From Psammoneis japonica (taxonomy: Eukaryota): a stretch of 64,000 nucleotides of DNA. The stretch spans positions 1,137,607 through 1,201,606 of the forward strand of contig QPGO01000005.1 of the NCBI GenBank assembly GCA_008632985.1, read 5' to 3'. The position numbers and the translations under genes were made by a program. Shown here in pieces: positions 1 to 64,000 of the stretch (position 1 is its first letter; the number at the start of each line of letters is the position of its first letter). The notes below the pieces were generated by a model. The model was given only the letters and a program-made list of their open reading frames with translations. It was not told the DNA's origin and made no database searches.

Positions 1-3000
1 CTGGCAAGAACATGCACTCAGATTCCTCTGACAATGAGTGCAAATTTGTTGTCGGTGGTGACTCAATTGAGCACGGAGTCAGACTTCTCCAAAAATGAGT
101 CCTTGGCTTTCTGCATGGACAAATTGTCTTTGCATCCAGAGGCATTGTCCAACAATGATTGCGGGTCCGTGATGGTTTCCTTGCACAGGTCTGGAGCATT
201 GACCACACACACAGAGAATGTAAACAGGTCATGTCCTGTGTGTGGTTTGCAGAACACATGATCAAAAATGTCAGTGCAATGATTGAACTTGGACTCACAC
301 AGCTGGTGTTCCGTTCCATTCCATCCCAGGTCTTCTGTCCCGGTCTCTGAAGTCATGTGTTCATGCACAAGCAGGCGTTCTTCTGGCTTGATGTGCTTCA
401 ATTGTCCAGCTGCACTGGAGTTGAAGATGGGGTGCACCATGTCATTCAGACGGGGATGATCCTTGACAACTGCACATGCCAGCACCGCCAAACCTTGCAG
501 GACCAACATCAGATGAATTGCGCCAAAATCAGCTCCGCATTGTGACCAAACTTCACAGGCATCCTTGTGCCATTGTTCCATTGAGTGGGCACAAAAGCTT
601 TCATTGTTCACATTGTTGTCAATCCACAGCAGGAATGCATGGATCTTGTTGACCATGAGATCTGCTGGAGAATTGGCTGTGTCAATGCAGCTGGGGTTCA
701 AAAGCACCTCGGAGAACTTCTCATGCATCAAATTGGTGGGGCTGATCTGCCCTGCCTGGGATCACCAAACAACACATTGAACTCATTCTGCAGACATGTG
801 CAGAAGAGCACAAACAAGTCACTGCCTGCACAACAGAGGTTTGGGAAATGCTTGTCCCCAACACAGCAGAAGCGATGACATCCAGCAGGATGACTGACAA
901 GCATCACCAGGTGAATCACCCATTTTGGGTCAGGGCCAGACCTGCACATGATGTTCTTGAATCAGCAGAGAGCTGTTGCTGGAGCTGTGACAGATGAAAG
1001 TCTCTTGCCAAGAATGACAGGATTTTCAAATGGCCATGTGCACTGTGAGGATTCCTGTGCTTCGCCACCACCTGTCGTGATGTTGCCCCAAGGCCTGTTG
1101 TCATCCAGCAAGAAATTCTTGGTGCATCAGCAGTGAGGGAAACCTCTGGGTGTGAGTGACCATCATGTTGCAAGTCAAAGTCTTGCAGTTGGAAATCAAG
1201 CTGAGCACAATTGCAGTGCATCTGTGCAAGCATCGGCTTCATTTTGCACTTGTTGTCACAGTGCTGACCTGTGGCATTCTTGCCATTGCACATTGCCTTG
1301 AAGGACCACATCTCGCCAAATGCATCCACGACAAAGAAACAACCAGCGGATGTTTTCCCACATTGCAGCCAGGTGCAATTGTCACTGTCACAATGACCAT
1401 CGCAGAACTGACCTCGGGATGTGCACAAACCCTGCATGTTGCAGTCCTCCTGTTGGCAGCAGAGACAACCAATTGCGTCACCTGGCACTTTTGAGCACTC
1501 CTGGCAATGAATTGACTGGTTGAAGGGCAGTGGGTTTTTCAGTTTTTTTGCTCAATCTCATTTTTGCATGGATGAATGGAGCCAAGAATCAAGTCTGCAA
1601 CCATGACCTTTGTTTTGGACAATTTGTGTTGGTCGAAATTTTCATCAGACTTGAAAACATCCAGGGAAAAAGTTGACCCTGTGCTTGTCTCCAGACCAGC
1701 CTCAACGGCCACCAACTGTTGCGCTCAAGGTTGGACTCTCCCCTCAACGTGATGAAAAGCAGGAGAGTGGGAACACATGCACAAAGACAGCCAAAGTGAG
1801 CTTTGCACAGTGCATTTGCCTGTCTAGCAACAGACAGTTCATCCAAATGGTGATCAAGGTGAGGAGGGCATTCAACACAGGAGCCCATCTTGGGATTGCC
1901 CAAGGTTGTTTTGCAGGCAAACTTGTGCCAGTTTTGCCTCAAATTGTCTGCAAGGTAAAAGTCGCTGGCAGAGTGGGGCAGCACACGCTCCACATCTGTG
2001 GCATTGTTGAGGATGTGAAGGCATGAAATGTGTGCAACAGCTTCCTCTGAGGCAACAGAATGACACTGAGATGGGTCAAATTGTTGTTGGAGTGTGGGCT
2101 TGTCCAGCCTCAACAAGACATGTCATTGGGGTGTTTGGAGGGGAGGCCAGCAATGGCACATTTGCAGAAACACCCATGTTGCAGAGGGACCCTTTTGAGA
2201 GAGAACCTTGGGGGGGGGGGGGGGCATTTCAGGATCCATGGATTCCAACAAGAGGGGAGTGTTGGTGGTGAGGGTCTGGTGTGCCTCCCCACATGAGATG
2301 AAACATTGCCAGAAACCTTGGGAGGTGCCTGTTTCACACGTGAAACAGACTTGGTCTTCTTGCAGGGGGTGGTCAAAGAAGGCTCTGTTGGAGAGAAAGA
2401 ATGGAGAAGACAAGGCATCCTTTAGAAACAATGCACAACAGAGTTGCATGCAAGAGGAAGCACTTGCTGGGATCACACAAGCAGGTTCCATCTTTGCAGG
2501 CCCTTCTCATTTTGCACTTGGGTTTTGAATCACACACCCATTTTTTGTCATCCTCAAAACAGCCGGCCCTCTGGCCACGCACTCGGCAGCGCAGCATTGT
2601 GAGCTGTTTGGAGCACCTGGGGCATGTGTGCCGGGTTGCTTTTTTGGACAATGCTTCCTGAATTTGCACTGCAACATGGCATTGAATTTTGCTTTGCATG
2701 CCTCCTGGGCAGCAACAGCATTGCCTTCCATTGTTGCTGTGTCCTTGATGTCACAGAGTTTGTCTCCAAGAAAGCCCTTGACTTTTTCCTCCTCAGAACC
2801 AACTTCATTTGAATGGCACATGACAAGAAAGCTGTTGACAAAAATGCATCACTCCTTCAGGGCAGTGATGTCACAAAAGATCTGCGTGAACCAATGGCTC
2901 CTGTCCTTCAGCTTGCACTGGACATGATGCATGACTGTTTTGACAACAAAGAAGCGCACAGTGTGGAGGTCTTGTGCTTGGTCATCAACCAGCTTTTCAA

Positions 3001-6000
3001 GAATTTTGTGCTGTAAAAAACAGAAGCAAGGCTTGCCTGAGACAGGATTGTTGAGGTCCTCACTGGCAATTGCCTGGTGCACGTGCTCCACCATTGCCTT
3101 CATGTTGCGGTGAAGGTCACAAAACATTGCCCTTCTTCTTTTTCTGTCTCTCCAGAGGCAGGGTGTAGAAACAAAGAGCACCCTCCAAATTTTGATGCTG
3201 CAGGACGCACTCACCTTTGTTCTGGCAGGATTTTTCATCACCCAACCAGGAGTCACAATGCAGGACCAAACACTGGGACATCCGAGAGTTTTTCTTGCAG
3301 CACTGTTTGTGCGGATGACTTTGGCGACACAGGGAATGCTGTGAAGCTTGAGCTTCTGGCAAAGGAAGGGAAGTGCAAGGATTTCTGGAGAGGGTGACCA
3401 ACTCATTCTCTCCACAAGCTGCTTTTTGGATGCACATGTGGCAACTGTGCTCTTGAGCTTGGGCCCAAAAAGCTCCATTCCAAAACTGCAAGTGAAACAT
3501 TCCATGTTGTCAAAATTGACATCAGGAAAGACAAACGAGGGATCGGGGTCAACCTCATCTGTTGATGGGGCAAAGTCATTGACCACCATGGCTGGCAAGT
3601 TGATGGTTCACATGGAAAGCATGTGAATCACAACAGCCCATGCTCTGTCAAATTGATTTTGGGGAGAGGGTGCACTGTCATGAAATGTGCAGAAAATGGC
3701 TCATGCAGAAAAGGCACTGGGAATGTGGTGGAGAATTGTGCACAAGAGAATTCCAGGAAAAAGTGAGATGCAAAGAAGAAGTGTGCACGTGGAGATGACC
3801 GGGCACAGACACGACACCAGGACACATGGCAAATGCACAAATGGGGCAAATGAAAGTAAAAACTGAGTTGAAATGCAAAGCATCAAAAGCAAAGATGATG
3901 GTTGTTGCAACTGAAAACTGTCAAACCACAAAACATTTGGAAATGCAAGGTGCTTTGGGGTGCACGTTGCGTGCAAATGGATGACAAAATTCACCATGAA
4001 ACACACAAATGTCTTGCATTGTGCATTGACCATTCAGGTTTGAACATCACATTTGAGGCATTTGCACAACAAGCTGATGGATGGCAAGATGATTGGACTT
4101 TCTGAATTTTTTGTGCTGGAAACTTTGTGCGCGCTGCACGCATCATCGCTGAAAATTGGCGACATGACGGTGGTGTGTTGTCACAACAACAGTGATGACA
4201 GCAGCGTGTCCCAGAGTTTTTTTGTCATTGTGGACATTTGGTTTGTTGAGTTTAAGAATGCACTCAGTCATGAAAGTCCCCGAGAGCAATCTCCGTTTGC
4301 CAATGCCAAGCTCTGTTTTCCAACCTGTCGCTGTTGTGCATTCATTGTGGAACAATTGAGACTTCATCAGGGGGACTTTCTTTGCACATTCTTCATGTTC
4401 TAAACAGCGCAGTTGATCATTGGGACAAGTGCCCATTGCAAAGTCGTCCTGTGTGAGCTTGAGAAAAATGTCATCATCATCATCGGCATCGATGGCAATT
4501 CGTCGCACAAATTGCAAAAAATGCGCGATTGTCATCTGTCTGACATTGCGCCACTGTGTGCTCGTTGTGTGCATGCCTCAAAAGAACAAGAAAAACAAAG
4601 TTCAATGGCAAATTGTGTGTCAACAAAAGCAACAGCCACCATGTTGCGGCCTCTGATGCTGGTCCCATCCACATGGGGCCCTGTGGCAGAAATTTTTGTG
4701 CAGCAATGAACAACACACGCAATCTGCACAAAAATGTCTGCTGGTGCACAGAGGGACATCACAAACAAGTGGTCATTTTTAACCAAATGTCTTTTTGTGC
4801 ACTCGTCTGCCATCCAAAAATCTTTGTGCTTTTTGCGTGAGAAAAAAAACATTGACCATGACAAGAACATCATTTGGGTCTGCGTTGACATCAAAAATTG
4901 AAAAGGAGTCTCATCTGGAGAGCCCTTTCACACCACATTGGGAGCATGTGGCATGAGGATTCCTGCTTGACATCTTTCCTTTTGAGGTGCTTTTTGTTTT
5001 TCACATTGCTGCTTCTCGCGCATTTTTGCTGTTGTTGCCTCCCCATCCACCAGAGTCCAGCAAAGGTTTCAAAGGTTGCTGCAGCCAAAGCACATGCCAG
5101 AGCACTTGCACTCATTGATCGGCACGATGAAAGTGGCAGCATGGATGGATTTGCTTTCTTGGGTGGAATCATGTGAGCAGAGGCAAGCACAGATCCACCT
5201 TTGAACAGTTTGCCAGCCCCACGTGACAACAAAAATTGACTCGGACTGCAACAAAATTTGTCATGCATTGTTGTCAATTCATCCATTTCTTGCCATGAGT
5301 GGTCAACAACAATGACAATGGGTGGCTGGAATTGATGACAAAGTTTTTCAAGGGCTGGAGATTTTTGATGCACCTGGCTCACCCAACCAAACAAACACAA
5401 GAAGCTCTCACAGCAATGTTGTGGCCATCAGCACTCCACTGTTGATGCAAAACATGCCTGAGCCAGTCTTCGGGTGCTCTCAATCTTGTTCATCTGAGCC
5501 ACTGCATCGCCCCAGCACTCGCTCTTGTGCGCTGCTTTGACTGCATCAAATTGGGCCAGGGCTTGTCACAGAGCTGAGCACAACCTGCTGCAAGGCCAAC
5601 TCTGCAACTGATGCTTGGTCATTCAGACAGAAATGCCACCCATGTGTCAAGAGACTGTGCTTTGGAGTGTGTCTGACTGGGATGACAGATGTCTCTGTCT
5701 GAGCATGTGCCGATCCCGCCACTGCACCGACAGCTGAGTCTGATCAACTTTTGCACAAAAATCCTTTGAAGTGTCAAAGGAACAATTTTGAACTTGAAAA
5801 TGACAGTCTCTCTTGGAACAACAGTGGCTGATGTGATGCAACTGGCCCTCAAATGACTCGTGCCTCAGACGCATCAAAAATGAGCAGAAATGCTCCCTTT
5901 GGCCTGCAGAGCTCTTCTTGTTGTTTTTGTTCTTCTTTTTGCAACAAGAGGCTTGGAGTGTTCACCCCAACAACAAAAAAGTTGAAAACAATGGATTTTG

Positions 6001-7490
6001 TGAGCAAAACAACAAAAGAAAACATTGCAAAGCCTCCATCAAGTGCTCATCTCACAATGCACACACCGGCACCCGTCTCATGATTGGAAGCATCAAAATG
6101 ATGCTCCCACCCAAATGTTGCAATGCTTCTCTTCACAACAATTTCAAAACATCATTGAGTCCAAACACATCAAAGCATGGAAATTTGGTCAACTGGAGCT
6201 GCTCAGGTTTGCAAGCCAAAAACAAGATGTTTTGAGCTGGTTTCATCCAAAAAAGTCACATGTTGCAGTGGAGGAAAGAACGTGTGACAGTGCCACAATG
6301 GACTGCTGAGAACAAGCTTGTGTGTTGCCACCCCAGAATTGTTGTGTTTCGCCATGGCTGCATGCACAAAACTCCTTTGGCTCATCACACAACAATTTTG
6401 GAAAGCAGCAACGTCACATGACTTGTTGTTGTTTTGTGCACTGCTCTTGCACAAAGGTGTGCATGACATCAACATGCCAGGCCTGCAGCTGCAGCACCCC
6501 TTGTTTCCTTGTTCCATGCAGTGCAACCATCTCTTTGACCTTGGGCCAACAGCACTTTTTGAGAAATCTGAAACCTTCTCAGTCTTTGCTGCTTGTGCTC
6601 ATCATGGGCTGAGAGAAGTCATTTTGCACCCTCTGGCGGTGCCAGGCGTGCTGCTGAAAAAAGACAAAATGGCTGCATCCAGTGTGCTTCTGCAGTGTGC
6701 ACAGACAATGACAACAACTGCAAACAAAATGAGTGCTGAACATGCCTGTCACATTGGCACACCAAAGATCATGTCATGCAAGCCACATTGTGGCCCAAAA
6801 AGCAAACTTCAACAAAGTGTTGCAGACAGACCACCACATCTCACCACAGCTTGGCATCAAGGGTGTGGTGGGTCAAAGTCACACACAAGCTCAAAGTTGT
6901 GCACTTGGCTCTTGCCCTTGCCCCCCTTTCATCCCAGATTGGCAAAACAAAATGACTTTGTTGTGTGTGTTGCAAAATGACCTGTCAAGCGCCAAGCAGC
7001 GCTGGTGTTGTGGGTTGTCACGGTGCCTGCAGCAACCAAAAATGCTTTCTTCTTGAGGTTTGGGCATGTGCAGAGCTGCAGCTGGAGAGCTGCAGAAAAG
7101 CCAGCATCAGAACAAGAGTCCAGTCAAAAGACTGTGTTTGCTGAAAGTGACAAACCCCGCAGAGGAGAGAAAGCTGGGCAGTGCACTGCCTTTCATGCGC
7201 GAAGCGCCCTGCCCTGTTGTGCCTGGGTGAGAAAAGACCAGCATTGTGGTGGCACACACACTTGCTGTTTGATGTGAGGGTTGGAAGCAATGTGGGCCAC
7301 AGATGCTGCAATTTGGCTGCTGCTGTGAGATGCAAACATTTTGACCACGCGGCTGAGCACAATCTTCGTGGCGCTGCTGACGAGCAATGAGACAATGCAC
7401 ACTGCTGTTTTGATGCTGTCATGCCAAGTGTGAAAGTGTGTGCACCAACCAAAAAGCTGCAGCCATTTGGGGCTTGTCTGCCAATGTCAA
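1..7490. other. TpA-depleted domain of decayed, unidentified repeat or gene-like DNA
   Basis: TpA is very rare and TG/CA abundant; ORFs in all frames are Cys/His-rich, nearly Tyr-free and end almost always in TGA. No family recognised. Confidence 0.8.
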
Positions 7491-8304
7491 TGGAAAGGAA
7501 GCAAAGTTTGAAGCTCGGTGGGCCAATCGTAAGAGTCGCTTGGCCAACTGTGACGGTTTCAAGTACTTTCACTTGATGCGACGAGTCGACCTTCAAGAGG
7601 ATGGAACGTGCACATATCAGGGAGACAAAGACGACGGATTTGGAAACTATGTCTCTTTTACTATTTGGGATACCAAGGCAAACTTTGGCAAATGGCGCAA
7701 AGGTGAAGCGTTCAAAGAAGCGCATGGAGGAACTTCGATTGGAGCTTTTGTGTCTACCATGTTGAACAGTATTCGAGTTCTAAGGACTGCCCCGAAACCT
7801 GCCTTTTATAATGGTCTCCTCGTACAGAGTATGGCGCCCGAAACCGTCCCTACACTACAGGACGGATGGAGGGTTTCGGAGAATGCCGATGGTACTGAAA
7901 CACTGCCAACCGAGTGCTTTGTCGCCTGCAATCAATTCTTTGTTCCTCCTCAGAACGCACAAGCTTTTGAGGAGCGTTGGGCTAATCGCGAATCCAAACT
8001 CAAGGAATTTGATGGATTTATAGCATTCATGATGAATCGCCGAGATGCATCCATGAAAGGTCACGGATCAGGCAGTGTACAGGACACGGAGCCAACCTAT
8101 CTGAGCACCACCATTTGGAGAGACCGCGCATCGTTTGATAAATGGCGCGAGTCGCAAGCTTTTACACAGGCCCATGGGGACTCAAATAAGAAACCCGACA
8201 GTAGCAACGAGAAGAAGTCGCCCCAAGGCCCACTCTGGAGTCGCCCTCCGGAGCCTGTCTTTTATGAAGGTACTCTTGTTATTACTACCGAGGAAGGAGC
8301 TTAG
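7490..8304 (+). CDS. Tandem ABM (antibiotic biosynthesis monooxygenase / IsdG-like) domain protein, 5' end missing
   Basis: Two related units: EAKFEARWANRKSRLANCDGFKYFHLMRR...YVSFTIWDTKANFGKWRKGEAFKEAHG and FVACNQFFV...AFEERWANRESKLKEFDGFIAFMMNRR...YLSTTIWRDRASFDKWRESQAFTQAHG. No in-frame ATG precedes the first domain (the track starts at GTG), and its first N-x-F strand is absent. Confidence 0.8.
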
Positions 8305-8590
8305 AGCGCCGCTCTCGCATAAGCATTCAGTGATTAGTCTAGAAGCGCTAACTAGTACTGAAACTGCGGTGTAGACGTTATCTAGCAAAGCATAATAACC
8401 ATAGGTATCTCCATAATTCCAGATGCGGGTTTGTCTGTCCCGCACGAATTTTAGAGTGTCATGGGCTCTAGAGAAGCTCCAACTGATAAGATGTACCTAC
8501 GTTGAAAGAAAGGATACCATATGCCATTGATTGTGTAATAGCCCTGGCATTCTGACAGCGGAGAGAACTTTTAGAAAAGAACACCGGCTG

Positions 8591-9805
8591 TTACCATTCT
8601 CCGTAGTTCACTTTGCCGTATTTTTCTTCATGTATGTTAATCATACGTGTGCAATTGGAGCACCTGGGATCTACCACATTTTTCCGAAGCTCGTTGATTA
8701 ATCGACTCCAATTGCTTCCCGACGCCAAGACATATCGGTTAGCTTCTAATGCAATCAAGAGCGCCGCAATCGATTCCAGTCCAGCTGCACCCTTGGTAAA
8801 CCGAGCAGTCTTGATCATTGTTTTTGTAGTATTACCAATCTTTGGACCAGACACATAAATCTTCCAATGATTTGGAGCCTTGTCGCGAAACTCTGCAAGT
8901 GCCGTTGGGTCCTCTGTGGCCAGGTAGATGTGTACGGTTCTTCTGCCATTGAGTTCATCCGGCGTGAGCAACTTCAGAGTGTACTTTATGTAATCTTCCA
9001 CAGGCAACAGCGGATCCTCAATCACCTTGTCACCCCATCGAATGTGAACAGTAACTAAATCCTGGAAGGTTGGTTTGTTATTTCCAAACATGGTTTGCAT
9101 TTGGCGTTCTGCCTCATCCATAACTATTGTGGATACGTTTTGAAAGAGCCATTCCATTGACGCTGCTCGAACTTCAGAAACCGTGTATTCCTTTTGTAGC
9201 TCGTCACATTTCTCACGTGGTCCTAACTCCATGTAGTCAGACCTTGCGTTTGTGTATTGAACACTACCCACCGGACAGTTTCGAGCAGCAGAGACGTGCG
9301 ATCCAAAGTAGCAAGCAAGTGGTTCGGAAGAATCGGCGGAGCAGCGACTTTGATCATTCCAGTCCCAAGTTTGTTCCGTCACAAGAATCTTGTCGTGATC
9401 CACGGCATGACATAGGCTCTGCGACCAAATGTGTAGTGACGATCCGAGACCCGACTCTTCCATTTCAGTGACGAATGTTTGTTGGGGAGCTGTCCCATTT
9501 CGAAACTGGTGGCATTTTGATTGGGAAAGGTGTATTCTCTTTCCCAGAGGACTCAGTGGAGGCAGGTTTGTCCAATCGAGACGGAGAGATGAACCCTCAT
9601 TTCTATGGAGAGGCTGACGAGATTCTGATACTGTTGTATAAAGGAGAGAGTCTCTGCTTGCCGGGTATCGTATGCTGCTCGTCACAGCCACGTTGATGAT
9701 GAAAATAGCAAGAATCGTGACGAGAAGAGCCACGAAATAAAGAGTAGTTTGTCCGTGGCGCCGAGAGTAGCGCCTCTTATTAACTACGCCTTGCCTGCCG
9801 TTCAT
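8591..9805 (-). CDS. Type II membrane glycosyltransferase, alpha-1,6-fucosyltransferase (GT23/FUT8/NodZ)-like
   Basis: 404-aa ORF with basic N-tail and TM helix (LYFVALLVTILAIFIINVAV); motifs GLGSSLH, VHIRWGDK, IYLATED, SNWSRLINELR. Confidence 0.8.
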   Translation of the reverse strand: MNGRQGVVNKRRYSRRHGQTTLYFVALLVTILAIFIINVAVTSSIRYPASRDSLLYTTVSESRQPLHRNEGSSLRLDWTNLPPLSPLGKRIHLSQSKCHQFRNGTAPQQTFVTEMEESGLGSSLHIWSQSLCHAVDHDKILVTEQTWDWNDQSRCSADSSEPLACYFGSHVSAARNCPVGSVQYTNARSDYMELGPREKCDELQKEYTVSEVRAASMEWLFQNVSTIVMDEAERQMQTMFGNNKPTFQDLVTVHIRWGDKVIEDPLLPVEDYIKYTLKLLTPDELNGRRTVHIYLATEDPTALAEFRDKAPNHWKIYVSGPKIGNTTKTMIKTARFTKGAAGLESIAALLIALEANRYVLASGSNWSRLINELRKNVVDPRCSNCTRMINIHEEKYGKVNYGEW

Positions 9806-11380: not shown

Positions 11381-12310
11381 ATGATGAACGAACCAAGAAA
11401 GAAGGACAACCAGGACAAGGAGGCTTCACAAAACGCAACTCATATATTTGGATCGGTTAGTGGGAACCAGAGACAGTCGTACACTGCTTTGTCGTTTGGA
11501 AAGAGCCCATTGACGACGGCTGCCCCTTCACCCTTTGCTATTGTTGATCGAGATGACGGTAAAAATTCAATCCCATCTTTTGGAGCGACTTCTCAGAAAG
11601 CGAAAGAAGAAACAGTAGGAGACGATGACTCCAATCGATCGTTTGGACTTCTTATTCGGAAAGAGCACGTTGTCGACCAGTCCTTTACCTTTGGCTACCG
11701 GTAGTGTGGACCATGCTAGCTCTTCCTTCAGCATGCAGACGACCAGCGTCTGAGTAAGATACAGTGAAACCGATAGAAGGAGATAGTGCTGAGACCACCT
11801 AGAACCGCAGTCAATTGATTGAGTTTTATGAAAAGCACAATCTGTCCAAGCTCGATTAGGTTGATTCTACTCTGGTGTCATACAAGGGACGAGAAGAATT
11901 GCTTTTCAGAGACAAGTATGATCCCAAATATCCACCCAGTGCCGCAGTCGATGGATTGAGTTTTATGAAAAGCACAATCCGTCTAAGCTTGATAAGGCTG
12001 ATTCTACTCTGGTGTCATACAGGGGACGAGAAGAATTGCTTCTCAAAGCTAAGAGACACAAATGATCCCATATATCCTCCTCCTTAGTAGGGAGAGGGCA
12101 TCGTCTGTTTGATGAAGATTTGAATTGACGCGGACGGAGAAGAGACAATGTGCGTTCAGCTCTTTGAAGACAAGGTACCCATGGCATGTGAGAACTTCAG
12201 GAAACTTTGCACTGGCGACTGCGGCATTGGACACAAAGGCAAGCCTCTATTTTCAAGAATAGCACCTTTCACCGTATTGTTCCAACTTTTTGCATACAAG
12301 ATGGCGACTC
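11381..12310 (+). pseudogene. Cyclophilin-type PPIase pseudogene with FG-like N-terminal region and two EFYEKHNxSKL...YxGREE repeats
   Basis: VQLFEDKVPMACENFRKLCTG...GKPL, a frameshift near 12250, then FKNSTFHRIVPTFCIQDGD. Upstream repeats carry stops and frameshifts. Confidence 0.75.
11806..12080 (+). repeat. ~137-bp tandem duplication (coding repeat)
   Basis: gattgagttttatgaaaagcacaat...gaagaattgctt occurs near 11817 and near 11954. Confidence 0.9.
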
Positions 12311-36087: not shown

Positions 36088-36115
36088 ACGCCCCACGCAC
36101 TGGCCTCTCACTGAC

Positions 36116-52800: not shown

Positions 52801-55800
52801 AAATGAGGGTGTGAGAATGAAGCTGGGCAGTGTGATGACAGAAGCAGTTTTTGTTCATTTTTGGGCTTTCTCTCACACCTTTCTTTTCACAGATGCACTC
52901 ATCAGAGCAAAACAAATCATGCCATGCAACGGCGTTGTTGGTGGGAAAAGATTGTGGTGGCAAAATCTGGCAATGGTTGATGATGCCATCATGGTGGCAT
53001 CAGCGGCAATTGGCAGTTGGCAGCGGTGTGTTTTGAAGTGGGAGGGGAAATCTGACCTTGCGTCGCAACATTGCACGATGTTTGCCATGGTCCATGGTGT
53101 GCCAGAATCTGACATTGTGTTGGTGACATCAGCAGTCATGTGGGAACAGCATGAAAAATGAGCAGCAGAGGGAAATCTGACCTTGTGTTGTGACATTGCA
53201 TGATGTTTCACTGTGGTGAGCCAGAACCCAACATTGTGGTGGCGACATCAGCAGCTGCATGAGGGCAGTGTGAAAAACAAGCAACAGAGGGAAATCTGAC
53301 CTTGCGTCATGACATTGCATGATGTTTTGCCATGGCAAGCCAGGGTCTGACATTGTGTGGCAGGCATCCCCACCGTGGCCACCGATGACGCCACTTTCCT
53401 GCATCTGCAGGCTGTCCGCAGCGATGCTGATCCTGCAGAAGCATGCTGCAGAAAGCACGACACCCAGCACAAGACCTGCAATGGGCCACAGGAGTGACCC
53501 GCGTGACTGAGACCTGCGCAGCTGGCCATCGCACAAGTGACTCGCCTTGTGTGAAGGGTCTGCTCAGGATGCACGCAGTGCCGAGCATGAGCCTGTGAAT
53601 TGGCTCAGCATGAGTGTCAACCAAGTGTTGCAAAAGACTCGCGCTCAAATCTTTCCAATGACTCATCACACAAAAAGAGCCCCCGCTTCTTGGAAAAAGA
53701 CACCATCATGCATCTGCACTCTGGCCAAAACAATCTTGCAATTTTTGCACACACAGAAAACAAATCTCCATCTCTGTGGTTTGGGTGCTTGTTCCCCATT
53801 TCTGCATGGGCCAGCTGCAGCCATGGCATTGCAGCATGCGTCAAAATGGGGGACAAGTGGTTGCCAACTGCCAAGGTTTCATTGCAGCCAACAAGCGGTC
53901 CAAGGTGGCAAAGGGCACAAAACCACAATGGCCAAAAACTGCTGAAGGCACAAAATCATGAGGGGCGCCAAATGTGGCTGAGGGCCCAAAACCAAAAAAG
54001 GCACAAAATGGCCATGGGCACAAAGTCACAAAGGGCGCAAAATGGCCAAGGGCACAAAACCATGAGATGGGGCAAAATGCTCAAGGGCACAAAAAAAGGA
54101 TGGGGCACAAAACAGCCAAGGGCACAAAAAAGTCAAGGGCACAAAATCAAGAATTACGCAACATGGCTGGGGGGCACAAAATCTCAAAGGTGCCCCCAGC
54201 GCCAAATGCTTGCGCCACAAATCTTGTTTGGCCAGCGCCCTGCCAGCGGGCTGTGTCCCTTCAGTGCCCCCCTGCAACATGTGGCGAGATTGTTCTCGAT
54301 TTGGAGCTTCGCAAAATGCGAAAATGCGAGGGTGCGAAAATGCGAAAATGCGAAAATGCAAAAATGAGAAAATGCGAAAATGCGAAAATGATGTGACGCA
54401 CCAAATTCCTTTTGAGAGTGTCCAGGTTCCGACCTCAGAGACGATCGCATTTTTCAATTTGGCAAAACGCCATTGTCCGTGCTGTTTTGCGTGTTGTTTT
54501 GAGCTACAGAGCCAGAGAACACTCCCAAAAAATTGTTCTGAAGGGCAAAATGTGCTGAATCTGCACAAATTTGGGTTGCGCCAGGCCATGCAGAAAGTGA
54601 GCGGGCTAAAAACTCCGGCGCACCCACTTGAGCACATTCAACAACTGGCTGACAAAAGGCTGGTTGACTGCTTTCCCAAAGCACCGCTTGTGTTGTGCCC
54701 TTCCCCAGCTGCTCTCCAGCTGGTGCCGTGGAGTGCAGTCACTCAATTTGGATTGTGTCTGCAACATCATTTGCAACAAACGTGACTGCCGCTTTTCACA
54801 CATTGTCTGCCAAACAGGTTTTGGCTCCAGCTCGTGTGTCTCAGCGCAACCCGCCGCACGGCTTTCCTCATCCCCCAGCCCACTGCCCCCCTCCTCCACT
54901 TTTCTGCCGACCGGCTCCAGCCCTGGGTGGGACTTTTTGCGACATTTGCCCTGCAGAATTCCACGTGCGAGCTCTGCAGTTCGCACTCTGGTCAATGGAC
55001 ATGTTTGTCTTCGACACAAAACAAATGGCCAAGTTTGCAGCACGTGCATCTCTGTCCGCACTCGAAGTTTTGGACAGCGCGCCTGCCCCACGCCATTCTC
55101 AAGACACTCGAGAATGGCGCAGAAGAAAAAAACGCCAAAAGTTGTTGAATGGATCGCCTGACAATTGTGCTGCAAAGCGATGCAAAATTTCTCCAAAATC
55201 ACTTAGAAACGCACGTGCGCGACATGCGACGCAATTCAAAAAACTGTCGATGTCACAGTTCAGCAGTGCGAGGTCCCACCCAGACCTGGAGCGTGTCTGC
55301 CACGCTCTGCCACAATCTTCCTGCAAAAATCCTCCCTCTTGCGTTTCCTGGGTGCACTCCCTTCCGCATCTCCGTTCTTGGAGTTCCCTGCCGTGAAGTG
55401 CTCCAGGCATCTCGTGCACTTTCGTGCAAACAAGTCACATGTTTCCAGGTTGTGAACTGCCTCACAGCCAAAAGAAGCAATCTTTGCCTTTAGAGTCACC
55501 ATGGTGCGCTGGTCTGCCAAATCAAACTCAGCATCACCATGGACAGTCGGGGAGAAATGTTGTCAAAACTGCGCAATGATGTGTTTGAGCTCTTGAGAGC
55601 TCACCCAGCTTGAGACATCATGGCTCCAAGTCGCCGTGTTTGTCGCGAACTCTTCCTGATGCTGTGTCTGTGACTTGAATTGCCGTGGCCATCGCACTTC
55701 AGAGATGACATTCTTGACAAGAAAAAGTGTCCCTGGGATGCGGTTGGAGACAGATTTTTAATGGGCACTTCTCATCTTTGTGGAACAAAGCTCAGCCATC

Positions 55801-58800
55801 ATGCTTGCTGTCAGCTAGATTGTGCCGCTCCTTGTCGAACATGGAAAAGCGCTCAGATTGGGCTGCTGCGATTGGCAGTTTTGTGTGGCCCCAATGGCGG
55901 GAACTCTCCATGGCGGCACTGCACATGGGCACAATTTGGGCACAAGAAAGTCCTCACAGCACCGCGACGCCAAGGCCAAAGCATGAGCCATCCACTCCAA
56001 GGCAGACAGTTGTTCAGCTTGCAATTGATCCGAGTTGCTCAGTTCAGCGGAGGAGCATCTCACTTGTTTGACCCGCAGGTTGTGCAGCTGGTTGGCCATG
56101 GCTCAACCAGTGCTCAAGTCAAGCATCCGCAAAGCCTGGCATCTGGCAGCGAGGGGCACTGGCACCGCTGCAAGTTGTTTTGGCACAACATCACCTCAGG
56201 GTGATGCCGGTTGAGGACGTGCAAAACCAACAATTTGACTGCAATGTGAAAAGTTGACTCCATCATGATGCTCCATTGGAGAGGGCAGTCTGGAGATGGC
56301 CTGGTGCACTTTTTACGCAGAAGCTGCGCGAGAGCCAAGCACGTGCATTCTTGCACAGATGCAGCACAAAAACAGAAAACAGAAAGCATGGCACGCCCAT
56401 CAGCGACTCACGACAACACCACGTGATGACCATGCATCAAAATGGCGTCATCCGCATCTTTCTGTGGCTCCTCTTTCACTTGCCCAATTGCCCCAAAAGG
56501 GCCAGGGAAAGCTCGCGCACTTCTGTCATGATGGATCAATGCAAGCTGAAGCTGTTCTTTTCATTCCACAACATCAGAATGCAGCGCAACAGATTGTCAA
56601 GGCGCGCCCGCATGTTGACTGTGCTGTCAGCCAAATCAATGCCATTTGCCGTTCGCTCACTTGGCGAGTTACAAAGCCAATGACTCTTGTTGGCTGAAGC
56701 TCTTGAGCCACTTTTGAGACTTGACACAATGGCCCACTTGTCCCGTTCTTCACCCTCTGTGTTTCATCAGAGGCGGCAATGCAGCGTTGCTCACTTTCCT
56801 TTGTAAATTTTGGAACACTGAATTGCACAAAAGTGTGTTGTTGTTGTTCAGCTTCAATTTCAATTTTAAGAGTCAAGTTGAATTTGTTGTTTCCTTTTTG
56901 TGTGTGCAGTTGTCACCTTTTTGTTTTGATTTGAATTCGCCGAAGACTTTCAACATGTGTTTCATTGTCGAAAAACAAGTTTTGTTTTGATGAATTTGTC
57001 GCACATGTGTCACCAACGAACCTCTTTTTGCACATGCCTTGTTTGAAGAGTGTCGTTTGTGGCAACTTGCAATGACTGGCCAATGGCAAAGGTGGCTGAA
57101 CTCTGTTTGTGCTTGATGCATCAACTTGGAGAGTGGGGGTCTGGGGTGTTTGTGCACTCCTTTGTGCTGCACAAGCCAAGCTGAGCCTCCTGTGTTTGTG
57201 AAGGTCATTGTGCAGTTGCAAGGAATGTGTGCTTCATGGGTGGTGGCTTGTCTTCTGGGTTGCTTGGGCAGTTGGGGCATGCCAGCTTGGATGGCATGGG
57301 AGGCATGAACTTCTTTTTTCACACCCTGTGGCTGGCGGTGCCTCTCAGCAAAATGGCTGCAGATTGAGCAAATGCAGACACCCATGCAGTGTTTCTAAAT
57401 TGCCTTTTTGTCTCTGGTTTTGGCACAAGAGTGCGCTCCCATTGCCCAGCCAACTGTTGGGCACTGACCAAGAGTGACCCCCTCAACACTCCGCTGTCCA
57501 CAGATGAGTTGGGAAACTCAGAAAAGCTTGCCTCCACATCAACCTGACTGGGGCTGGAGGTGGGAGAGCCTGGCAGACCTGGAGACATGAAAAAACTCTT
57601 GGCTGGGGAGGCTGCCTTGCCAAGCATTTGTGTGCTTTTCCCTCCAATGTGCGATGGAGACAACTGCAACACCCTGGCTGTTTTGGCTGGAGCTTGGCCA
57701 GCCCTCAACCCAAATGGGGAAAAATCTGCTTGAGCAGGAGAAGCTGAAAGCCCGCCAAGGTTGGGAGGTGCAGAGCAGGTGCCTGTTGCTCTGCTCACCA
57801 TTGCAAGAGCGCCCCTTTGGTGCTGATCAAAACTCCATCCTGTCAAGCAAAAGCTTGGGCTGTGCAAACTGAGAAAAGAAATCTTGCTGCTCTGGGGCTG
57901 GGCCATCATGCCCATCCTCAGGTTTGCTGTCTGAGGAACTCATGGTTGAGATGACCAAGGTGTTCAAAAGTGTTGGTTGTGTTGTGAGGGCTGGAGTTGA
58001 GAGTTTCTGTTGAAAATGAAAATTTGGGCCGCCACGTCTGGCAGGTGGGTCAGACTTCCTTTTGCAAAAATGCAAAGAACAGATGAAAGCTGCCAAGTTG
58101 AGATGGAACTCACCAAGCAGTGCTTGCACTGGGCTCAGTGGTGCAAGTGCTTTGAGCGCACCACTTCAATGGCTTCACCACCAGCAAAGCAGAAGCAGCG
58201 ACAATGAGGTGCCACAATTTTTCTGCACAAAATCTGCCCCAGTGTCCTGTGGAAACAGCTTTCTGGGCAGAAAATTCCAGACACAAAATGAAAAAAAAAA
58301 CAAGTGCTGTTGAATTCTTTGTGTCACCTGAATTTCTGGTGAGTTTTGGTGAAGAGCAGAAAGGAGACAAGGAGTTGGTTGTGGCAGAAATGAAGCACCT
58401 GATGGTTGGTGTTGATTTGCTGTTTGACGTGTTCCAGCTCTGGGTGGGACCTCGTGCTGCTGAACTGTGACATGGTCATTTTTTGTCATCCGTCGCATGT
58501 TTCGCACGTGCATTTCCATGTGTTCCATTGTAAAAAATTGTTCCACACTGCCTGTTTTGCGAAGCCAAAGGCTTTCTGTTGTCTGCACTTGTGTCAATGA
58601 AAATGCGCTGGGCATGTTCTTTGTTCTCCTGCAGAAGCACAGACAAGGGCCAAAGGAAAACAAGAGGTTGGGAAAACAAAAAAGTGCGCTGGGTCAATGC
58701 AATCTGTCAAAATGCCATGGAGTGATTTGCCAAATGAGGGTGTGAGAATGAAGCTGGGCAGTGTGATGACAGAAGCAGTTTTTGTTCATTTTTGGGCTTT

Positions 58801-61800
58801 CTCTCACACCTTTCTTTTCGCAGATGCACTCATCAGAGCAAAACAAATCATGCCATGCAACGGCGTTGTTGGTGGGAAAAGATTGTGGTGGCAAAATCTG
58901 GCAATGGTTGATGATGCCATCATGGCAGCATCAGCGGCGATTGGCAGTTGGCAGCAGTGTGTTTTGAAGTGGGAGGGGAAATCTGACCTTGCGTCGTGAC
59001 ATTGCACGACGTTTGCCATGGTCCATGGTGTGCCAGAATCTGACATTGTGTTGGTGACATCAGCAGTCATGTGGGAACAGCATGAAAAATGAGCAGCAGA
59101 GGGAAATCTGACCTTGTGTTGTGACATTGCATGACGTTTCACTGTGGTGAGCCAGAACCCAACATTGTGGTGGTGACATCAGCAGCTGCATGAGAACAGT
59201 GTGAAAAACAAGCAACAGAGGGAAATCTGACCTTGCGTCATGACATTGCATGATGTTTTGCCATGGCAAGCCAGGGTCTGACATTGTGTGGCAGGCATCC
59301 CCACCGTGGCCACCGACGACGCCACTTTCCTGCATCTGCAGGCTGTCCGCAGCGATGCTGATCCTGCAGAAGTGTGCTGCAGAAAGCACGACACCCAGCG
59401 CAAGACCTGCAATGGGCCACAGGAGTGACCCGCATGACTGAGACCTGCGCAGCTGGCCATCGCACAAGTGACTCGCCTTGTGTGAAGGGTCTGCTCAGGA
59501 TGCACGCAGTGCCGAGCATGAGCCTGCGAATTGGCTCAGCATGAGTGTCAACCAAGTGTTGCAAAAGACTCGCGCTCAAATCTTTCCAATGACTCATCAT
59601 GCAAAAAGAACCCCCGCTTCTTGGAAAAAGACACCATCACGCATCTGCACTCTGGCCAAAACAATCTCACAATTTTTGCACACACAGAAAACAAATCTCC
59701 ATCTCTGTGGTTTGGGTGCTTGTTCCCCATTTCTGCGTGGGTCAGCTGCAGCCATGGCATTGCAGCATGTGTCAAAATGGGGGACAAGTGATTGCCAGCT
59801 GCCAAGGTTTCATTGCAGCCAACAAGCGGTCCAAGGTGGCAAAGGGCACAAAACCACAATGGCCAAAAATTGCTGAAGGCACAAAATCATGAGGGGCCCA
59901 AATGTGGCTGAGGGCCCAAAACCAAAAAAGGCACAAAATGGCCAAGGGCACAAAGTCACAAAGGGCGCAAAATGGCCAAGGGCACAAAACCACGAGATGG
60001 GGCAAAATGCTCAAGGGCACAAAAAAAGGATGGGCACAAAACAGCCAAGGGCACAAAAAGGTCAAGGGCACAAAGCCAAGAATTGCGCAACATGCTGGGG
60101 GCACAAAATCTCAAAGGTGCCCCCAGCGCCAAACACTTGCGCCACAAATCTTGTTTGGTCAGCGCCCTGCCAGTGGGCTGTGTCCCTTCAGCCCCCCCTG
60201 CAACATGTGGTGAGATTGTTCTCGATTTGGAGCTTCGCAAAATGCGAAAATGCGAAAATGCGAAAATGCGAAAATGCGAAAATGCAAAAATGCGAAAATG
60301 CGAAAATGCGAAAATGCAAAAATGCAAAAATGCAAAAATGCGAAAATGCGAAAATGCAAAAATGCGAAAATGATGTGACGCACCAAATTCCGTTGAGAGT
60401 GTCCAGGTTCCGACCTCAGAGACGATCGCATTTTTCAGTTTGGCAAAACGCCATTGCCCGCGCTGTTTTGCGTGTTGTTTTGAGCCGCAGAGCCAGAAAA
60501 CACTCACAAAAAATTGTTCTGCAGGGCAAAATGTGTTGCACCAGGCCACGCAGAAAGTGAGCGGGCTAAAAACTCCGGCGCACCCACTTGAACACATTCA
60601 ACAACTGGCTGACACAAGACTGGTTGACTGGTTTCCCAAAGCGCCGCTTGTGCTGTGCCCTTCCCCAGCTGCTCTCCAGCTGGCACCATGGAGTGCAGTC
60701 GCTCAGTTTGGATTGTGCCTGCAACGTCATTTGCAACAAACGTGGCTGCCACTTTCCACACATTGTCTGCCAAACAGGTTTTGGCTCCAGCTCGTGTGTC
60801 TCAGTGCAACCCGCCATGTGGCTTTCCTCATCCCCCAGCCCACTGCCCCCCTCCTCCACTTTCCTGCCGACGGGCTCCAGCCCTGGGTGGGACTTTTTGT
60901 GACATTTGCCCAGCAGAATTCCATGTGCGAGCTCTGCAGTTCGCACTCTGGTCAATGGACATGTTTGTCTTTGACACAAAACAAACGGCCAAGTTTGCAG
61001 CACGTGCATCTCTGTTCGCACTCGAAGTTTTGGACAGCGCGCCTGCCCCACGCCACTCTCAAGACACTTGAGAATGGCGCAGAAGAAAAAAATGACAAAA
61101 GTTGTTGAATGGATCGCCTGACAATTGCGCTGCAAAGTGATGCAAAATTTCACCAAAATCACGCAGAAATGCACGTGCACGACATGCGACGCGATTCAAA
61201 AAACTGTCGATGTCACAGTTCAGCAGTGCGAGGTCCCACCCAGACCTGGAGCACGTCTGCCACGCTCTGCCACAATCTTCCTACAAAAATCCTCCCTCTT
61301 GCATTTCCTGGGTGCACTCCCTTCTGCATCTCCGTTCTTGGAGTTCCCTGCCGTGAAGTGCTCCAGGCATCTCGCGCACTTTCGTGCAAACAAGTCACAT
61401 GTTTCCAGGTTGTGAGCTGCCTCACAGCCAAAAGAAGCAATCTTTGCCTTTGGAGTCACCATGATGCACTGGCCTGCCAAATCAAACTCAGCATCACCAT
61501 GGACAGTTGGGGAGAAATGTCATCAAAACTGCGCGATGATGTGTTTGAGCTCTTGAGAGCTCACCCAGCTCAAGACATCATGGCTCCAAGTCGCCGTGTT
61601 TGTCGTGAACTCTTCCTGATGCTGTGTCTGTGACTTGGCTTCATCGTTGAATTGCCGTGGCCACCGCACTTCAGAGATGACATTCTTGACAAGAAAAAGT
61701 GTCCCTGGGATGCCTCATGACAACGGAGACCCCACAGAACAAAAGAGCAGTGCAGAAAGAGAAATTGCGTGCAAACCAAACAGCCACAAACATGCAAAGC

Positions 61801-64000
61801 TTCGACAAAACACACAGCACGAATGGCAGCGCACAAGGTTGGTCGTGGCGCAACAGAAGCAACGTTGTCAATGCGAACCTTCAACAAGAATTTTTGCCAC
61901 AATCTGGTGATGCCGGTTGAGGACGTGCAAAACCAACAATTTGACTGCAATGTAAAAAGTTGACTCCATCATGATGCTCCATTTGAGAGGGCAGTCTGGA
62001 GATGGCCTGGTGCACTTTTTGTGCAGAAGCTGCACGAGAGCCAAGCATGTGCATTCCTGCACAGACACAGCACAAAAACAGAAAACAGAAAGCATGGCAC
62101 GCCCATCAGCGACTCACGACAACACCACGTGATGACCATGCATCAAAATGGCGTCATCTGCATCTTTCTGTGGCTCCTCTTTCACTTGCCCGATTGCCCC
62201 AAAAGGGCCAGGGAAAGCTTGCACACTTCTGTCATGATGGATCAATGCAAGCTGAAGTTGTTCTTTTCACTCCACAACATCAGAATGCAGCGCAACAGAT
62301 TGTCAAGGCACGCCCGCATGTTGGCTGTGCTGTCAGCCAAATCAACACCATTTGCCATTCGCTCACTTGGCAAATTACAAAGCCAACGACTCTTGTTGGC
62401 TGAAGCTCTTGAGCCACTTTTGAGACTTGACACAATGGCCCACTTGTCCCGTTCTTCACCCTCTGTGATTCATCAGAGGCGGCAATGCAGTGTTGCTCAC
62501 TTTCCTTTGCAAATTTTGGAACACTGAATTGCACAAAAGTGCGTTGTTGTTGTTCAGCTTCAATTTCAATTTTAAGAGTCAAGTTGAATTTGTTGTTTCC
62601 TTTTTGTGTGTGCAATTGTCACCTTTTTGTTTTGATTTAAATTCGCTGAAGACTTTCAACATGTGCTTCATTGTCGAAAAACAAGTTTTGTTTTGACGAA
62701 TTTGTCGCACATGTGTCAAAAACCAACGAACCTCTTTTTGCACATGCCTTGTTTGAAGAGTGTCATTTGTGGCAACTTGCAATGATTGGCCAATGGCAAA
62801 GGTGGTTGAACTCCATTTGTGCTTGATGCATCAACTTGGAGAGTGGGGGTCTGGGGTGTTTGTGCATTCCTTTGTGCTGCACAAGCCAAGCTGAGCCTCC
62901 TGTGTTTGTGAAGGTCATTGTGCAGCTGCAAGGAATGTGTGCTTCATGGGTGGTGGCTTGTCTTCTGGGTTGCTTGGGCAGTTGGGGCATGCCAGCTTGG
63001 ATGGCATGGGAGGAATGGGAGGCATGAACTTCTTTTTTCACACCAGCTCTTCTCACACTGTTGGGAGAGGACCCTGCACAGCAGAGAAGCAGGGGTGCTT
63101 CTAGAAAGGGACAAAGACTGGCCTGGGCTTGCTCTGAGAAAAAAGTTTCTTGAAGCAGAAATGAGCCAGCTTTTTCCCAGCTGGTGTTCTCGGGGTTGTT
63201 CTCCAACTGGTGCAAGTGCTTTGGGCACACCACTTCAATGGCTTCACCACCAGCAAAGCAGAAGCAGTGACAATGAGGTGCCACAATTTTTCTGCACAAA
63301 ATCTGCCCCAGTGCACGTGCATCTCTGTTCGCACTCGAAGTTTTGGACAGCGCGCCTGCCCCATGCTGTTCTCAAAGACACTCGAGAATGGTGCAGAAGA
63401 AAAAAACGCCAAAAGTTGTTGAATGGATCGCCTGACAATTGTGCTGCAAAGCGATGCAAAATTTCTCCAAAATCACTCAGAAATGCACGTGCGCGACATG
63501 CGACGCGATTCAAAAAACTGTCGATGTCACAGTTCAGCAGTGCGAGGTCCCACCCAGACCTGGAGCGTGTCTGCCACGCTCTGCCACAATCTTCCTGCAA
63601 AAAATCCTCCCTCTTGCATTTCCTGGGTGCACTCCCTTCAGCATCTCCGTTCTTGGAGTTCCCTGTCGTGAAGTGCTCCAGGCATCTCGCGCACTTTCGT
63701 GCAAACAAGTCACGTGTTTCCAGGTTGTGAACTGCCTCACAGCCAAAAGAAGCAATCTTTGCCTTTGGAGTCACCATGATGCACTGGTCTGCCAAATCAA
63801 ACTCAGCATCACCATGGACAGTCGGGGAGAAATGTCATCAAAACTGCGTGATGATGTGTTTGAGCTCTTGAGAGCTCACCCAGCTTAAGACATCATGGCT
63901 CCAAGTCGCCGTGTTTGTCGTGAACTCTTCCTGATGCTGTGTCTGTGACTTGGCTTCATCGTTGAATTGCCGTGGCCATCGCACTTCAGAGATGACATTC
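43435..64000 (+). repeat. Tandem array of a ~5.7-6.2-kb composite unit: three near-complete copies and a deleted fourth
   Basis: Anchor gatgccggttgaggacg at about 43896, 50114, 56203 and 61909; copies are highly similar and differ by transitions and internal deletions. Confidence 0.95.
48096..48423 (+). repeat. Perfect (AAAATGCG)41 array
   Basis: 328 bp of uninterrupted 8-bp units; shorter imperfect counterparts near 54313-54388 and 60239-60371. Confidence 0.97.

Follow-up and report, generated by a model that had tools for sequence, protein, structure and literature searches.

Near-absence of TpA in three domains of a Psammoneis japonica contig and its probable origin through regional conversion of TpA to TpG and CpA

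In fungal repeat-induced point mutation (RIP), CpA is changed to TpA, which raises the A+T content of the affected DNA and creates stop codons. Deaminases of the TadA and ADAT2–ADAT3 type, and base editors derived from TadA, act on an A that follows U or T, as in the U33–A34 step of tRNA, where the residue at position 32 is usually a pyrimidine. A hypermutation that turns TpA into TpG or CpA and arises de novo is described for the alga Bigelowiella natans in the main text of an April 2026 preprint (bioRxiv 10.64898/2026.01.13.699255), the source of all data on this organism given below. Among 15 mutation-accumulation lines, 231 of the 302 nuclear mutations were located in an integrated giant virus and virophage, and of the 231 mutations in these hypermutable regions 230 changed A to G or T to C, in every case at TpA, at a rate of ~6e-7 per site per generation, ~1000-fold over background; the hypermutation appeared in 11 of the 15 lines only. 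The same text reports 324 coding sequences (CDS) whose TpA frequency is 0.0018 and among which reverse-transcriptase and DDE domains are enriched, as well as 124 clusters of windows low in TpA and high in CpA+TpG, and names an ADAT2-like candidate, citing the DNA-editing ADAT2 of amphioxus and Trypanosoma. Here we describe a stretch of 64,000 nucleotides from the diatom Psammoneis japonica (assembly GCA_008632985.1, contig QPGO01000005.1, positions 1,137,607 to 1,201,606; referred to as the window), three domains of which have lost nearly all of their TpA, and compare it with these systems.

The window consists of three TpA-depleted domains, the last beginning at about 35652, and of two gene islands that separate them (Table 1). 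Dinucleotides were counted in 1-kb windows and per domain. The 44,502 bases of depleted DNA that were analysed contain 99 TpA, compared with ~1,929 predicted from the density in the islands, and the Poisson log-probability of such a deficit underflows. With observed/expected (o/e) ratios of 0.02–0.04 in the domains and 0.61–0.68 in the islands, the near-absence of TpA claimed in the original prediction, which had been made from this DNA alone, is confirmed; with ~5% of the expected sites left, it amounts to a near-extinction of TpA in the domains. CpA/TpG is raised in the depleted domains (7.4, 8.9, and 28.2 kb), to an o/e of 1.64–1.85 versus 1.10–1.17 in the islands, and CpG is depleted in the same three domains (0.26, 0.32, and 0.51 versus 0.95–1.01), a point given too little weight in the original prediction, whereas G+C content is nearly equal (0.47–0.50 in the domains, 0.45–0.48 in the islands). 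ApA/TpT is enriched in the domains (o/e 1.20–1.46), and ApT also remains abundant. The borders are sharp: there is no TpA between 4780 and 7530, TpA is dense up to 22186 and again from 31261, and it becomes sparser past 35635/35702. ORF-poor stretches of the islands (ORF, open reading frame) have a TpA o/e of 0.48–0.76 and a CpG o/e of 0.89–1.34 (TpA 0.48–0.74 in island 1 alone). The contrast is thus one of chromosomal domains and not of coding versus non-coding DNA, so that it cannot be due to purifying selection on genes.

Per kilobase, the domains contain 41.1 fewer TpA and 28.3 fewer CpG than the islands (69.4 in sum) and 74.4 more CpA+TpG. Since the losses nearly equal the gain, conversions of TpA and CpG together explain the excess of CpA/TpG, with a TpA share of ~60%. 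The earlier statement that decay of 5-methylcytosine (5mC) removes only CpG is correct, but such decay is also active here and accounts for ~40% of the extra CpA/TpG.

Three independent tests indicate the direction TA→CA/TG, namely a tandem duplicate at a domain border, the Tyr codons of a gypsy relic, and pairs of intact and converted proteins. The duplicate, with a unit of 438 bp, straddles the border of domain 3, with copy A outside the domain and copy B inside it. Sixteen of the 20 TpA of copy A read CA (7) or TG (9) in copy B. The two copies differ at 27 positions, 16 of which fall on the 40 bases of the 20 TpA (Fisher p = 6.7e-12); 80% of TpA are changed, compared with 2.8% of the other bases, a historical comparison that does not represent a de novo rate. 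CpG was changed in only 1 of 23 cases. Thus, at the domain border, the conversion of TpA ran far faster than the decay of CpG (16/20 versus 1/23), and of two neighbouring copies only the one inside the domain was converted. The CA and TG outcomes alternate along the duplicate (12 runs among the 16, with 8.9 expected) and show no strand coordination; the hits are hence independent single events on both strands. The segment 34759–36089 comprises this duplicate and, just upstream of it, a 31-bp tandem array. Both consist of direct and inverted copies of a ~12-bp motif (ACTTTCCACGAT / ATCGTGGAAAGT) and, located exactly at the border of the domain, may represent the end of a transposon or an array of protein-binding sites.

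The sequence context of the 99 surviving TpA differs from that in the islands. A pyrimidine at position −2 on both strands (TTAA, CTAA/TTAG, CTAG) is found in 58 of the 99, compared with 127 of 802 in the islands, whereas ATAN accounts for 7 of 99 versus 409 of 802, and GTAC for 1 of 99 versus 48 of 802. These counts suggest that the process favours sites with a purine at position −2 from the edited A, with the caveat that all four TpA surviving in the inner copy of the border duplicate are GTA.

The second test is provided by a degraded Ty3/gypsy pol relic in domain 2. Two overlapping ORFs at 28904–29457 on the minus strand match RT_RNaseH families (PF17919, 54.9 bits; PF17917, 34.1 bits). 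A tblastn search of the window with 142 Tyr-normal relatives yielded 431 high-scoring segment pairs, all at 26.5–29.6 kb and on the minus strand, with no second relic in the window. At consensus codons, defined by at least 60% agreement on a residue among at least five intact relatives, the relic keeps none of 13 Tyr codons, which are represented by five CAY, three TGY, two TGG, and three other codons. Retention elsewhere is 10/15 for Phe, 7/9 for Trp, 7/8 for His, 18/21 for Pro, and 30/43 for Leu (Fisher p = 1.2e-7). Arg is kept at 5 of 21 positions and is replaced by Cys (7), stop (2), Gln (2), and His (1), substitutions that polarise the CpG decay separately. The effect of the TpA process on coding DNA is therefore missense, Tyr being changed to His or Cys, and TAA and TAG are removed with no stop codons created, in agreement with the predicted inactivation by missense load. 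The elements would also lose TATA-like and AATAAA-like signals.

The third test extends to public proteins. Six of the 150 best relatives of the protein P0001, drawn from a library of 1.84 billion proteins, as well as P0001 itself, contain less than 1% Tyr and have raised His and Cys, whereas the median of all 151 is 3.5% Tyr. In the 28 columns that are Tyr in three intact relatives, the 119 cells contributed by seven converted proteins include 39 Cys, 35 His, 17 Phe, and 4 Tyr. The intact P0284 and the converted P0125 are 77% identical, and the 17 Tyr of the former correspond to 12 Cys, 3 His, 1 Arg, and 1 Phe, none being kept, whereas in a control pair of intact proteins of equal divergence (P0284 and P0298) 35 of 41 Tyr are kept. 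The comparison of P0284 with P0125 also exhibits an excess of I→V and T→A. The Tyr-free relatives originate from NCBI, ENA, Logan, and JGI records and share 34–54% identity with P0125, the first sequence of the alignment; such divergence and variety of sources imply that conversion was repeated in separate element lineages and assemblies. Eight entries (P0001, P0125, P0132, P0133, P0206, P0212, P0241, and P0331) are deposited as long Tyr-free or Tyr-poor 'proteins' of converted retroelements, their length being due to the lack of TAA and TAG stops in converted DNA. The ratio of Cys to His at former Tyr sites is 12:3 in P0125, 9:3 in P0331, and 39:35 in the seven converted proteins pooled; the excess of Cys in P0125 and P0331 may represent a copy-specific strand bias. 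In turn, metagenome loci of relatives, taken as the best-scoring 80 of 423 candidates, have a TpA o/e of 0.46–1.00 in 78 of 78 cases (median 0.73), so that the element family is not TpA-poor by nature; this result answers one of the refuting conditions named in the original prediction, intact copies that are equally free of TpA. A scan of viral contigs with P0125 gave no match.

In addition to the loss of TpA, ordinary decay of CpG to TpG/CpA, of the 5-methylcytosine type, co-occurs in the depleted domains, where silenced repeats are depleted in CpG; this decay leaves the loss of TpA unexplained. Since the repeats were last amplified, this decay has been the chief cause of divergence, as seen in the ~6.1-kb tandem units of domain 3. 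Among 259 variable columns of the three units, 106 are CpG↔TpG/CpA and 8 are TpA↔TpG/CpA, and another 20 are adjacent CA/TG or CA/CG/TG doubles. Loss of CpG is found in 126 of 224 columns, while of the 18 TpA-bearing columns six are intact in all three units, three have one loss, and one reads TA/CA/TG. The small number of TpA-variable columns implies that TpA was largely erased before the last amplification and that CpG decay has dominated since. The order of rates is opposite in the border duplicate, and hence the TpA process is fast when and where it is active, perhaps episodically; it may be episodic, finished here, or slow at the remaining contexts. Within the first unit, a (AAAATGCG)n array at 48096–48429 (41.8 copies, 100% identity) keeps all of its CpG within a domain that otherwise shows CpG decay, the kilobase in which it lies having a CpG o/e of 1.19. 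Its counterparts in the other two units (54313–54390 and 60239–72) are far shorter, and it looks like a very recent expansion.

Read evidence came from three runs (X1, X2, and X3) of one sample in one study; X2 represents mainly the gene islands, X3 yielded no placed contigs, and there is no RNA run among the runs listed as holding sequence of the window. Since runs of a single study contain the sequence, its source is probably not a model strain that has been sequenced heavily. X1 contigs with a word depth of ~57–65 reproduce 21000–26127 with 2–9 differences per contig. Two X1 contigs in domain 2, of 2,249 and 2,160 bases and with a word depth of ~57–63, differ from the window in 9 and 2 letters, respectively, and are free of TpA; such a depth of exact 31-mers implies accurate reads. 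A few sites per kilobase distinguish the X1 contigs from the window, and the allele of the window is absent among them at these sites; X1 is thus probably another haplotype than the window, although it may still belong to the same project. The stretch 22268–26071 (~3.8 kb, domain 2) is free of TpA at single-copy depth in X1, the sole run that covers it. Among 40 of the 318 variant rows, most changes within the domains are of the kind CpG↔TpG/CpA. At eight sites TA is found in place of the CA or TG of the window, five of these sites belonging to a single alternative contig (30756–30780), and at one site CA replaces a TA kept in the window. The presence of TA at converted sites in an alternative contig implies less-converted alleles or paralogues in the same organism. 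Totals of the X1 variants (A>G 55, T>C 67, G>A 68, C>T 57) include paralogues and are uninformative.

The X1 word depth is ~57–71 for the last part of island 1 together with the unique sequence of domain 2 (21000–31143) and ~110–136 over island 2 (31144–34313); the lower depth is consistent with diverged or hemizygous haplotypes. At 26.1–30.5 kb and 36.2–38.8 kb the depth ranges from hundreds to ~11,000, which identifies high-copy repeats. Contigs of X1 and X2 join 34492 to 35976, omitting 1,483 bases that include the outer copy of the duplicate, and one X1 contig joins 30150 to 34745, with 4,594 bases omitted and 32 other letters in between. These jumps around island 2 are structural alleles or paralogues.

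That a polarised, regional TA→TG/CA process is real we consider very probable. The process operates on DNA, is confined to the domains, is specific for TpA, results in A:T→G:C, and stops within a few hundred bases of the flanking genes, which bears out the predicted regional action on DNA with the gene islands spared. It consists of a single kind of A:T→G:C transition that strikes either strand of the palindromic TpA, the two strands being hit independently, so that TA→TG and TA→CA are one event, as had been suggested and as the three tests of polarity and the mass balance support. In the mechanism that we propose, an enzyme would deaminate adenine to hypoxanthine in 5′-TA of DNA; it would be recruited to silent or methylated chromatin and not to sequence repetition, and it would serve irreversible genome defence, by the same process as the de novo hypermutation of B. 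natans. This explanation as a whole, comprising a region-confined TpA→TpG/CpA hypermutation and a B. natans-type process with an adenine deaminase recruited to silent chromatin for genome defence, we hold to be reasonably likely; adenine deamination as the chemistry is put forward more tentatively, at a little short of an even chance. The adenine route is favoured because A34 follows U33 in the tRNA substrate and because the authors of the B. natans study cite the DNA-editing ADAT2. Targeting looks chromatin-based rather than homology-based, because genes lie directly at the borders, CpG decay affects the same domains, the converted DNA includes ~3.8 kb of single-copy depth, and only the inner copy of the duplicate is converted. 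In view of this stretch of single-copy depth and of the split duplicate, targeting to domains or chromatin fits the data better than the original idea that repeats as such are the target.

In the sequence, an A→G change looks the same as a T→C change of the opposite strand, and the base attacked might instead be the thymine: a TET/JBP-type dioxygenase would oxidise the T of TpA in silent chromatin to 5-hydroxymethyluracil (5hmU) and then 5-formyluracil (5fU), and mispairing with G or mis-repair would yield T→C. In dinoflagellates, which together with diatoms and Bigelowiella belong to the SAR (stramenopiles, alveolates, and Rhizaria) supergroup, 5hmU favours TpA/TpC, and 5fU can pair with G; 5hmU itself, however, pairs normally with A, and we know of no evidence for it in diatoms, for which no specific search was made. 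A dinoflagellate TET/JBP homologue makes repeat-enriched 5hmU, the lowering of which de-represses transposable elements (TEs), but no mutational consequence is described in the accessible part of that paper (PMC11572971). We consider the thymine route rather improbable. Error-prone repair is a still weaker candidate, and a quite improbable one: in methylated DNA, T:G mismatches left by 5mC deamination would be repaired again and again and thereby recruit a polymerase eta-like enzyme, whose synthesis of repair patches would introduce A→G at WA as in phase II of somatic hypermutation. Polymerase eta has a WA→WG signature and the TpA-free domains are exactly those depleted in CpG, but WA also covers ApA, yet ApA/TpT is enriched in the domains, and at the border the loss of TpA (16/20) preceded that of the supposed trigger, CpG (1/23). 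Moreover, the GC-biased mutations in the hypermutable regions of B. natans are, according to the preprint's main text, all at TpA.

Retrotransposon transcripts might also have been hyperedited from A to I by an ADAR-like enzyme, the changes being fixed through reverse transcription and reinsertion, and one relic is indeed a retrotransposon. However, conversion extends equally to satellites, to unclassified DNA, and to a single copy of a local tandem duplicate, the depletion follows the borders of domains and not those of elements, and ADARs are not known outside animals. The alternation of CA and TG in the duplicate leaves no one-strand runs, and strand-coordinated A→G clusters of the ADAR type in transcribed or retrotransposed sequence were not found. 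ADARs usually prefer a U 5′ of the edited A (cited in bioRxiv 10.64898/2026.01.13.699255, main text), but editing of RNA is very unlikely as the source of the pattern. An artefact of sequencing, base-calling, or assembly, such as a misread modified base, is considered just as unlikely. The stretch is present in one study only, maybe in the assembly's own data, with the library type not recorded; on the other hand, long X1 contigs at a word depth of ~60 match the window in domain 2, a misread base in the palindromic TA would be expected to give CA or TG according to strand and no clean contigs, Tyr-free relatives exist in NCBI, ENA, Logan, and JGI records, and the signature in B. natans was called, according to the preprint's main text, from Illumina reads of mutation-accumulation lines. 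Least likely of all, to the point of being nearly dismissed, is the reverse polarity, in which this DNA was always poor in TpA and the TpA-bearing copies gained theirs by RIP-like CpA→TpA. A comparison of two copies alone has no direction, but the conserved Tyr codons of the element family are CAY/TGY in the relic, relatives elsewhere have normal TpA, the pair P0284/P0125 agrees, and the TpA o/e of the islands (0.61–0.68) shows no excess. GC-biased gene conversion was ruled out, as ApA, TpT, and ApT are still abundant, and so was aberrant repair of TpG/CpA to CpG by TDG (PMC4041421), since CpG is depleted here.

Several points weigh against the explanation by TpA hypermutation or limit it. All of the evidence is historical, and no new mutation was observed. 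The sequence is present in one study only, possibly the assembly's own source, and the platform is not recorded. In the duplicate, A→G also makes up four of the 11 differences outside TpA, so the specificity may not be absolute, and two of the consensus Tyr codons of the relic are TGG, which needs an additional change. None of the 78 metagenome relatives is converted, in a sample biased to intact copies (the best 80 of 423). After amplification of the tandem units, the turnover of TpA was not faster than that of CpG, with loss at only ~4 of 10 clearly ancestral TpA compared with 126 of 224 CpG columns. The preference for a purine at −2 is derived from survivors, some of which may be newly created TpA.

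Comparison with fungal RIP reveals a similar irreversible mutational inactivation of selfish DNA through transitions at one dinucleotide, with skewed relics beside normal genes, but the direction is opposite: C:G→T:A changes that raise TpA and A+T were not found, and here TpA→CpA/TpG is accompanied by a slight rise in G+C and the loss of TAA/TAG. As for the duplication that triggers RIP, the segment 22268–26071 is free of TpA at single-copy depth and one copy of the duplicate was converted, with past repetition being possible. 5mC-driven decay is present as the second process described above (CpG o/e 0.26–0.51), but it cannot remove TpA and was much slower at the domain border. The apparent preference for a purine at −2 has no obvious match to the pyrimidine at tRNA position 32 in substrates of TadA/ADAT2–ADAT3. 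Dinoflagellate 5hmU made by TET/JBP resembles the system described here in being a base-level feature of T at repeats, linked to the silencing of TEs, but it is an epigenetic mark, and no mutational footprint is described for it in the accessible part of PMC11572971.

The closest similarity is to B. natans, with the same dinucleotide, the same two products, and confinement to particular regions, which here may likewise be of foreign or selfish origin. The A→G/T→C changes at TpA that give TpG/CpA in that organism are found here as a historical footprint and not as de novo mutations, and the TpA frequency of 99/44,502 = 0.0022 is close to the 0.0018 of the low-TpA CDS. The two organisms are a diatom (stramenopile) and a chlorarachniophyte (rhizarian). 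The active region of nucleocytoplasmic large DNA virus (NCLDV) origin in B. natans has a Rho of 0.45, whereas here domains of tens of kilobases are saturated; the targets there are viruses, and here a retroelement relic, satellites, and unclassified DNA. The overlap with CpG depletion is seen in the window, while the main text of the preprint mentions DNA methylation only in general terms. The assumption of the original prediction that no described pathway does this was thus superseded by the preprint, since the same signature arises there de novo. The three domains are best read as a saturated case of this recently described process, found in another major lineage of eukaryotes, and they add as new details that the domains have sharp borders and coincide with CpG decay, that strand clustering is lacking, and that a purine may be preferred at −2. 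The words 'diatom' and 'trinucleotide' do not occur in the main text of the preprint, and our search of the literature revealed no description of such TpA-targeted hypermutation for diatoms. In the mutation-accumulation paper on Phaeodactylum tricornutum, CG→CN is the most mutable dinucleotide class, and 'TpA' is absent from the accessible text. Diatom DNMT4 enzymes are related to fungal RID and have no known function according to the accessible part of PMC9998398, which is a lead and not evidence.

The genes of the islands are spared, and one gypsy relic and satellites lie inside the depleted DNA, while domain 1 and much of domain 2 belong to no recognised class. Among 10 island ORFs scanned, five have a Pfam match above the cut-off, those in island 1 being ABM, Peptidase_M66 (two ORFs), and TagA. 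Three successive ORFs at 19138–21982 on the plus strand correspond to Peptidase_M66 (twice) and TagA and represent a gene broken up by introns or frameshifts; this metalloprotease family is mostly known from bacteria and is found here in a diatom gene island of normal composition. An ORF at 17398–19047 (549 residues), with no match in the Pfam scan, contains a 36-bp tandem repeat (18117–18269, 4.2 copies, 92% matches) that would encode a repeated 12-residue motif. The closest named relatives of the pseudouridine synthase in island 2 are from the raphid pennate diatoms Nitzschia, Cylindrotheca, Pseudo-nitzschia, Amphora, Seminavis, and Mayamaea (46–52% identity), with further relatives at up to 59%; by this homology the window belongs to a pennate diatom and not to Bigelowiella. 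The depleted domains contain 300 stop-to-stop ORFs of at least 80 residues in the standard code, 264 of which were scanned against Pfam; the other 36 lie at ~56.2–61.1 kb, mostly in the near-identical third tandem unit. The scan of these 264 gave two matches above the cut-off, both within the single gypsy relic, none in domains 1 and 3, and one further sub-threshold match at chance level. The expectation that the domains hold retrotransposon relics and satellites is borne out for domain 2 (one gypsy relic) and for domain 3 (satellites and the 6.1-kb array), but not for domain 1, where none of 48 ORFs of at least 80 residues has a Pfam match and nothing was recognised. The tandem array at 43435–64000 has internal repeats of 8, 35, and 119 bp. 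Searches of the window with Rfam (gathering threshold) and ARAGORN gave no matches.

Table 1. Positions of the domains, gene islands, and other features in the window (TpA counts refer to the part analysed where one is given).
Feature	Position	Strand	Details
TpA-free domain 1	1-7529	.	10 TpA in 1-7400; TpA o/e 0.02; CpG o/e 0.26
Gene island 1 (internal control)	7530-22186	.	600 TpA in 7600-22100; TpA o/e 0.61; CpG o/e 0.95
TpA-free domain 2	22187-31260	.	23 TpA in 22300-31200; TpA o/e 0.04; CpG o/e 0.32
Degraded Ty3/gypsy pol relic (reverse transcriptase C-terminus, RNase H, integrase)	26733-29630	-	Pfam and tblastn; ~1-kb insertion near 27750-29057
Gene island 2	31261-35651	.	202 TpA in 31500-35500; TpA o/e 0.68; CpG o/e 1.01
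Pus3-like (TruA/Pus3-type) pseudouridine synthase	32835-34559	-	PF01416, 100.7 bits
Copy A (outer copy) of the 438-bp tandem duplicate	35214-35651	+	20 TpA
TpA-free domain 3 (satellites and tandem array)	35652-64000	.	66 TpA in 35800-64000; TpA o/e 0.04; CpG o/e 0.51
Copy B of the 438-bp tandem duplicate, inside domain 3	35652-36089	+	4 TpA
T-rich 26-bp satellite blocks	40206-40720 and 41274-41554	+	Domain 3
Tandem array, ~6.1-kb unit	43435-49652, 49653-55741, 55742-61905, partial fourth to 64000	+	Units 94-98% identical

One may speculate further that a chromatin-guided DNA base editing that erases TpA is common to, and possibly ancestral to, diatoms and chlorarachniophytes within SAR; it would act on silent, methylated domains in their entirety, whatever their copy number today, prefer a purine at −2, employ an enzyme as yet unreported from any organism, outpace 5mC decay when it is on, drive TpA almost to extinction, and leave long Tyr-free pseudo-ORFs in databases as a by-product. 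In this full form the proposal is rather unlikely, though far from negligible.

TpA-free DNA, in which TAA/TAG and Tyr codons are missing, gives rise to spurious long ORFs and distorts gene prediction, annotation of TEs, and homology searches; a track of TpA o/e would flag such regions simply. If the explanation by a B. natans-type process is true, it points to hunts for the enzyme, among ADAT/TadA-like deaminases as well as TET/JBP, in genetically tractable organisms. The diatom would represent the end state of the process, and natural experiments such as the border duplicate would constrain its rate, strand behaviour, and targeting. A mutational defence known from one alga and a single 2026 preprint would then also be present in diatoms, dominant marine primary producers, and might turn out to be a eukaryotic system of great age and wide distribution, with a RIP-like role and the opposite chemistry.

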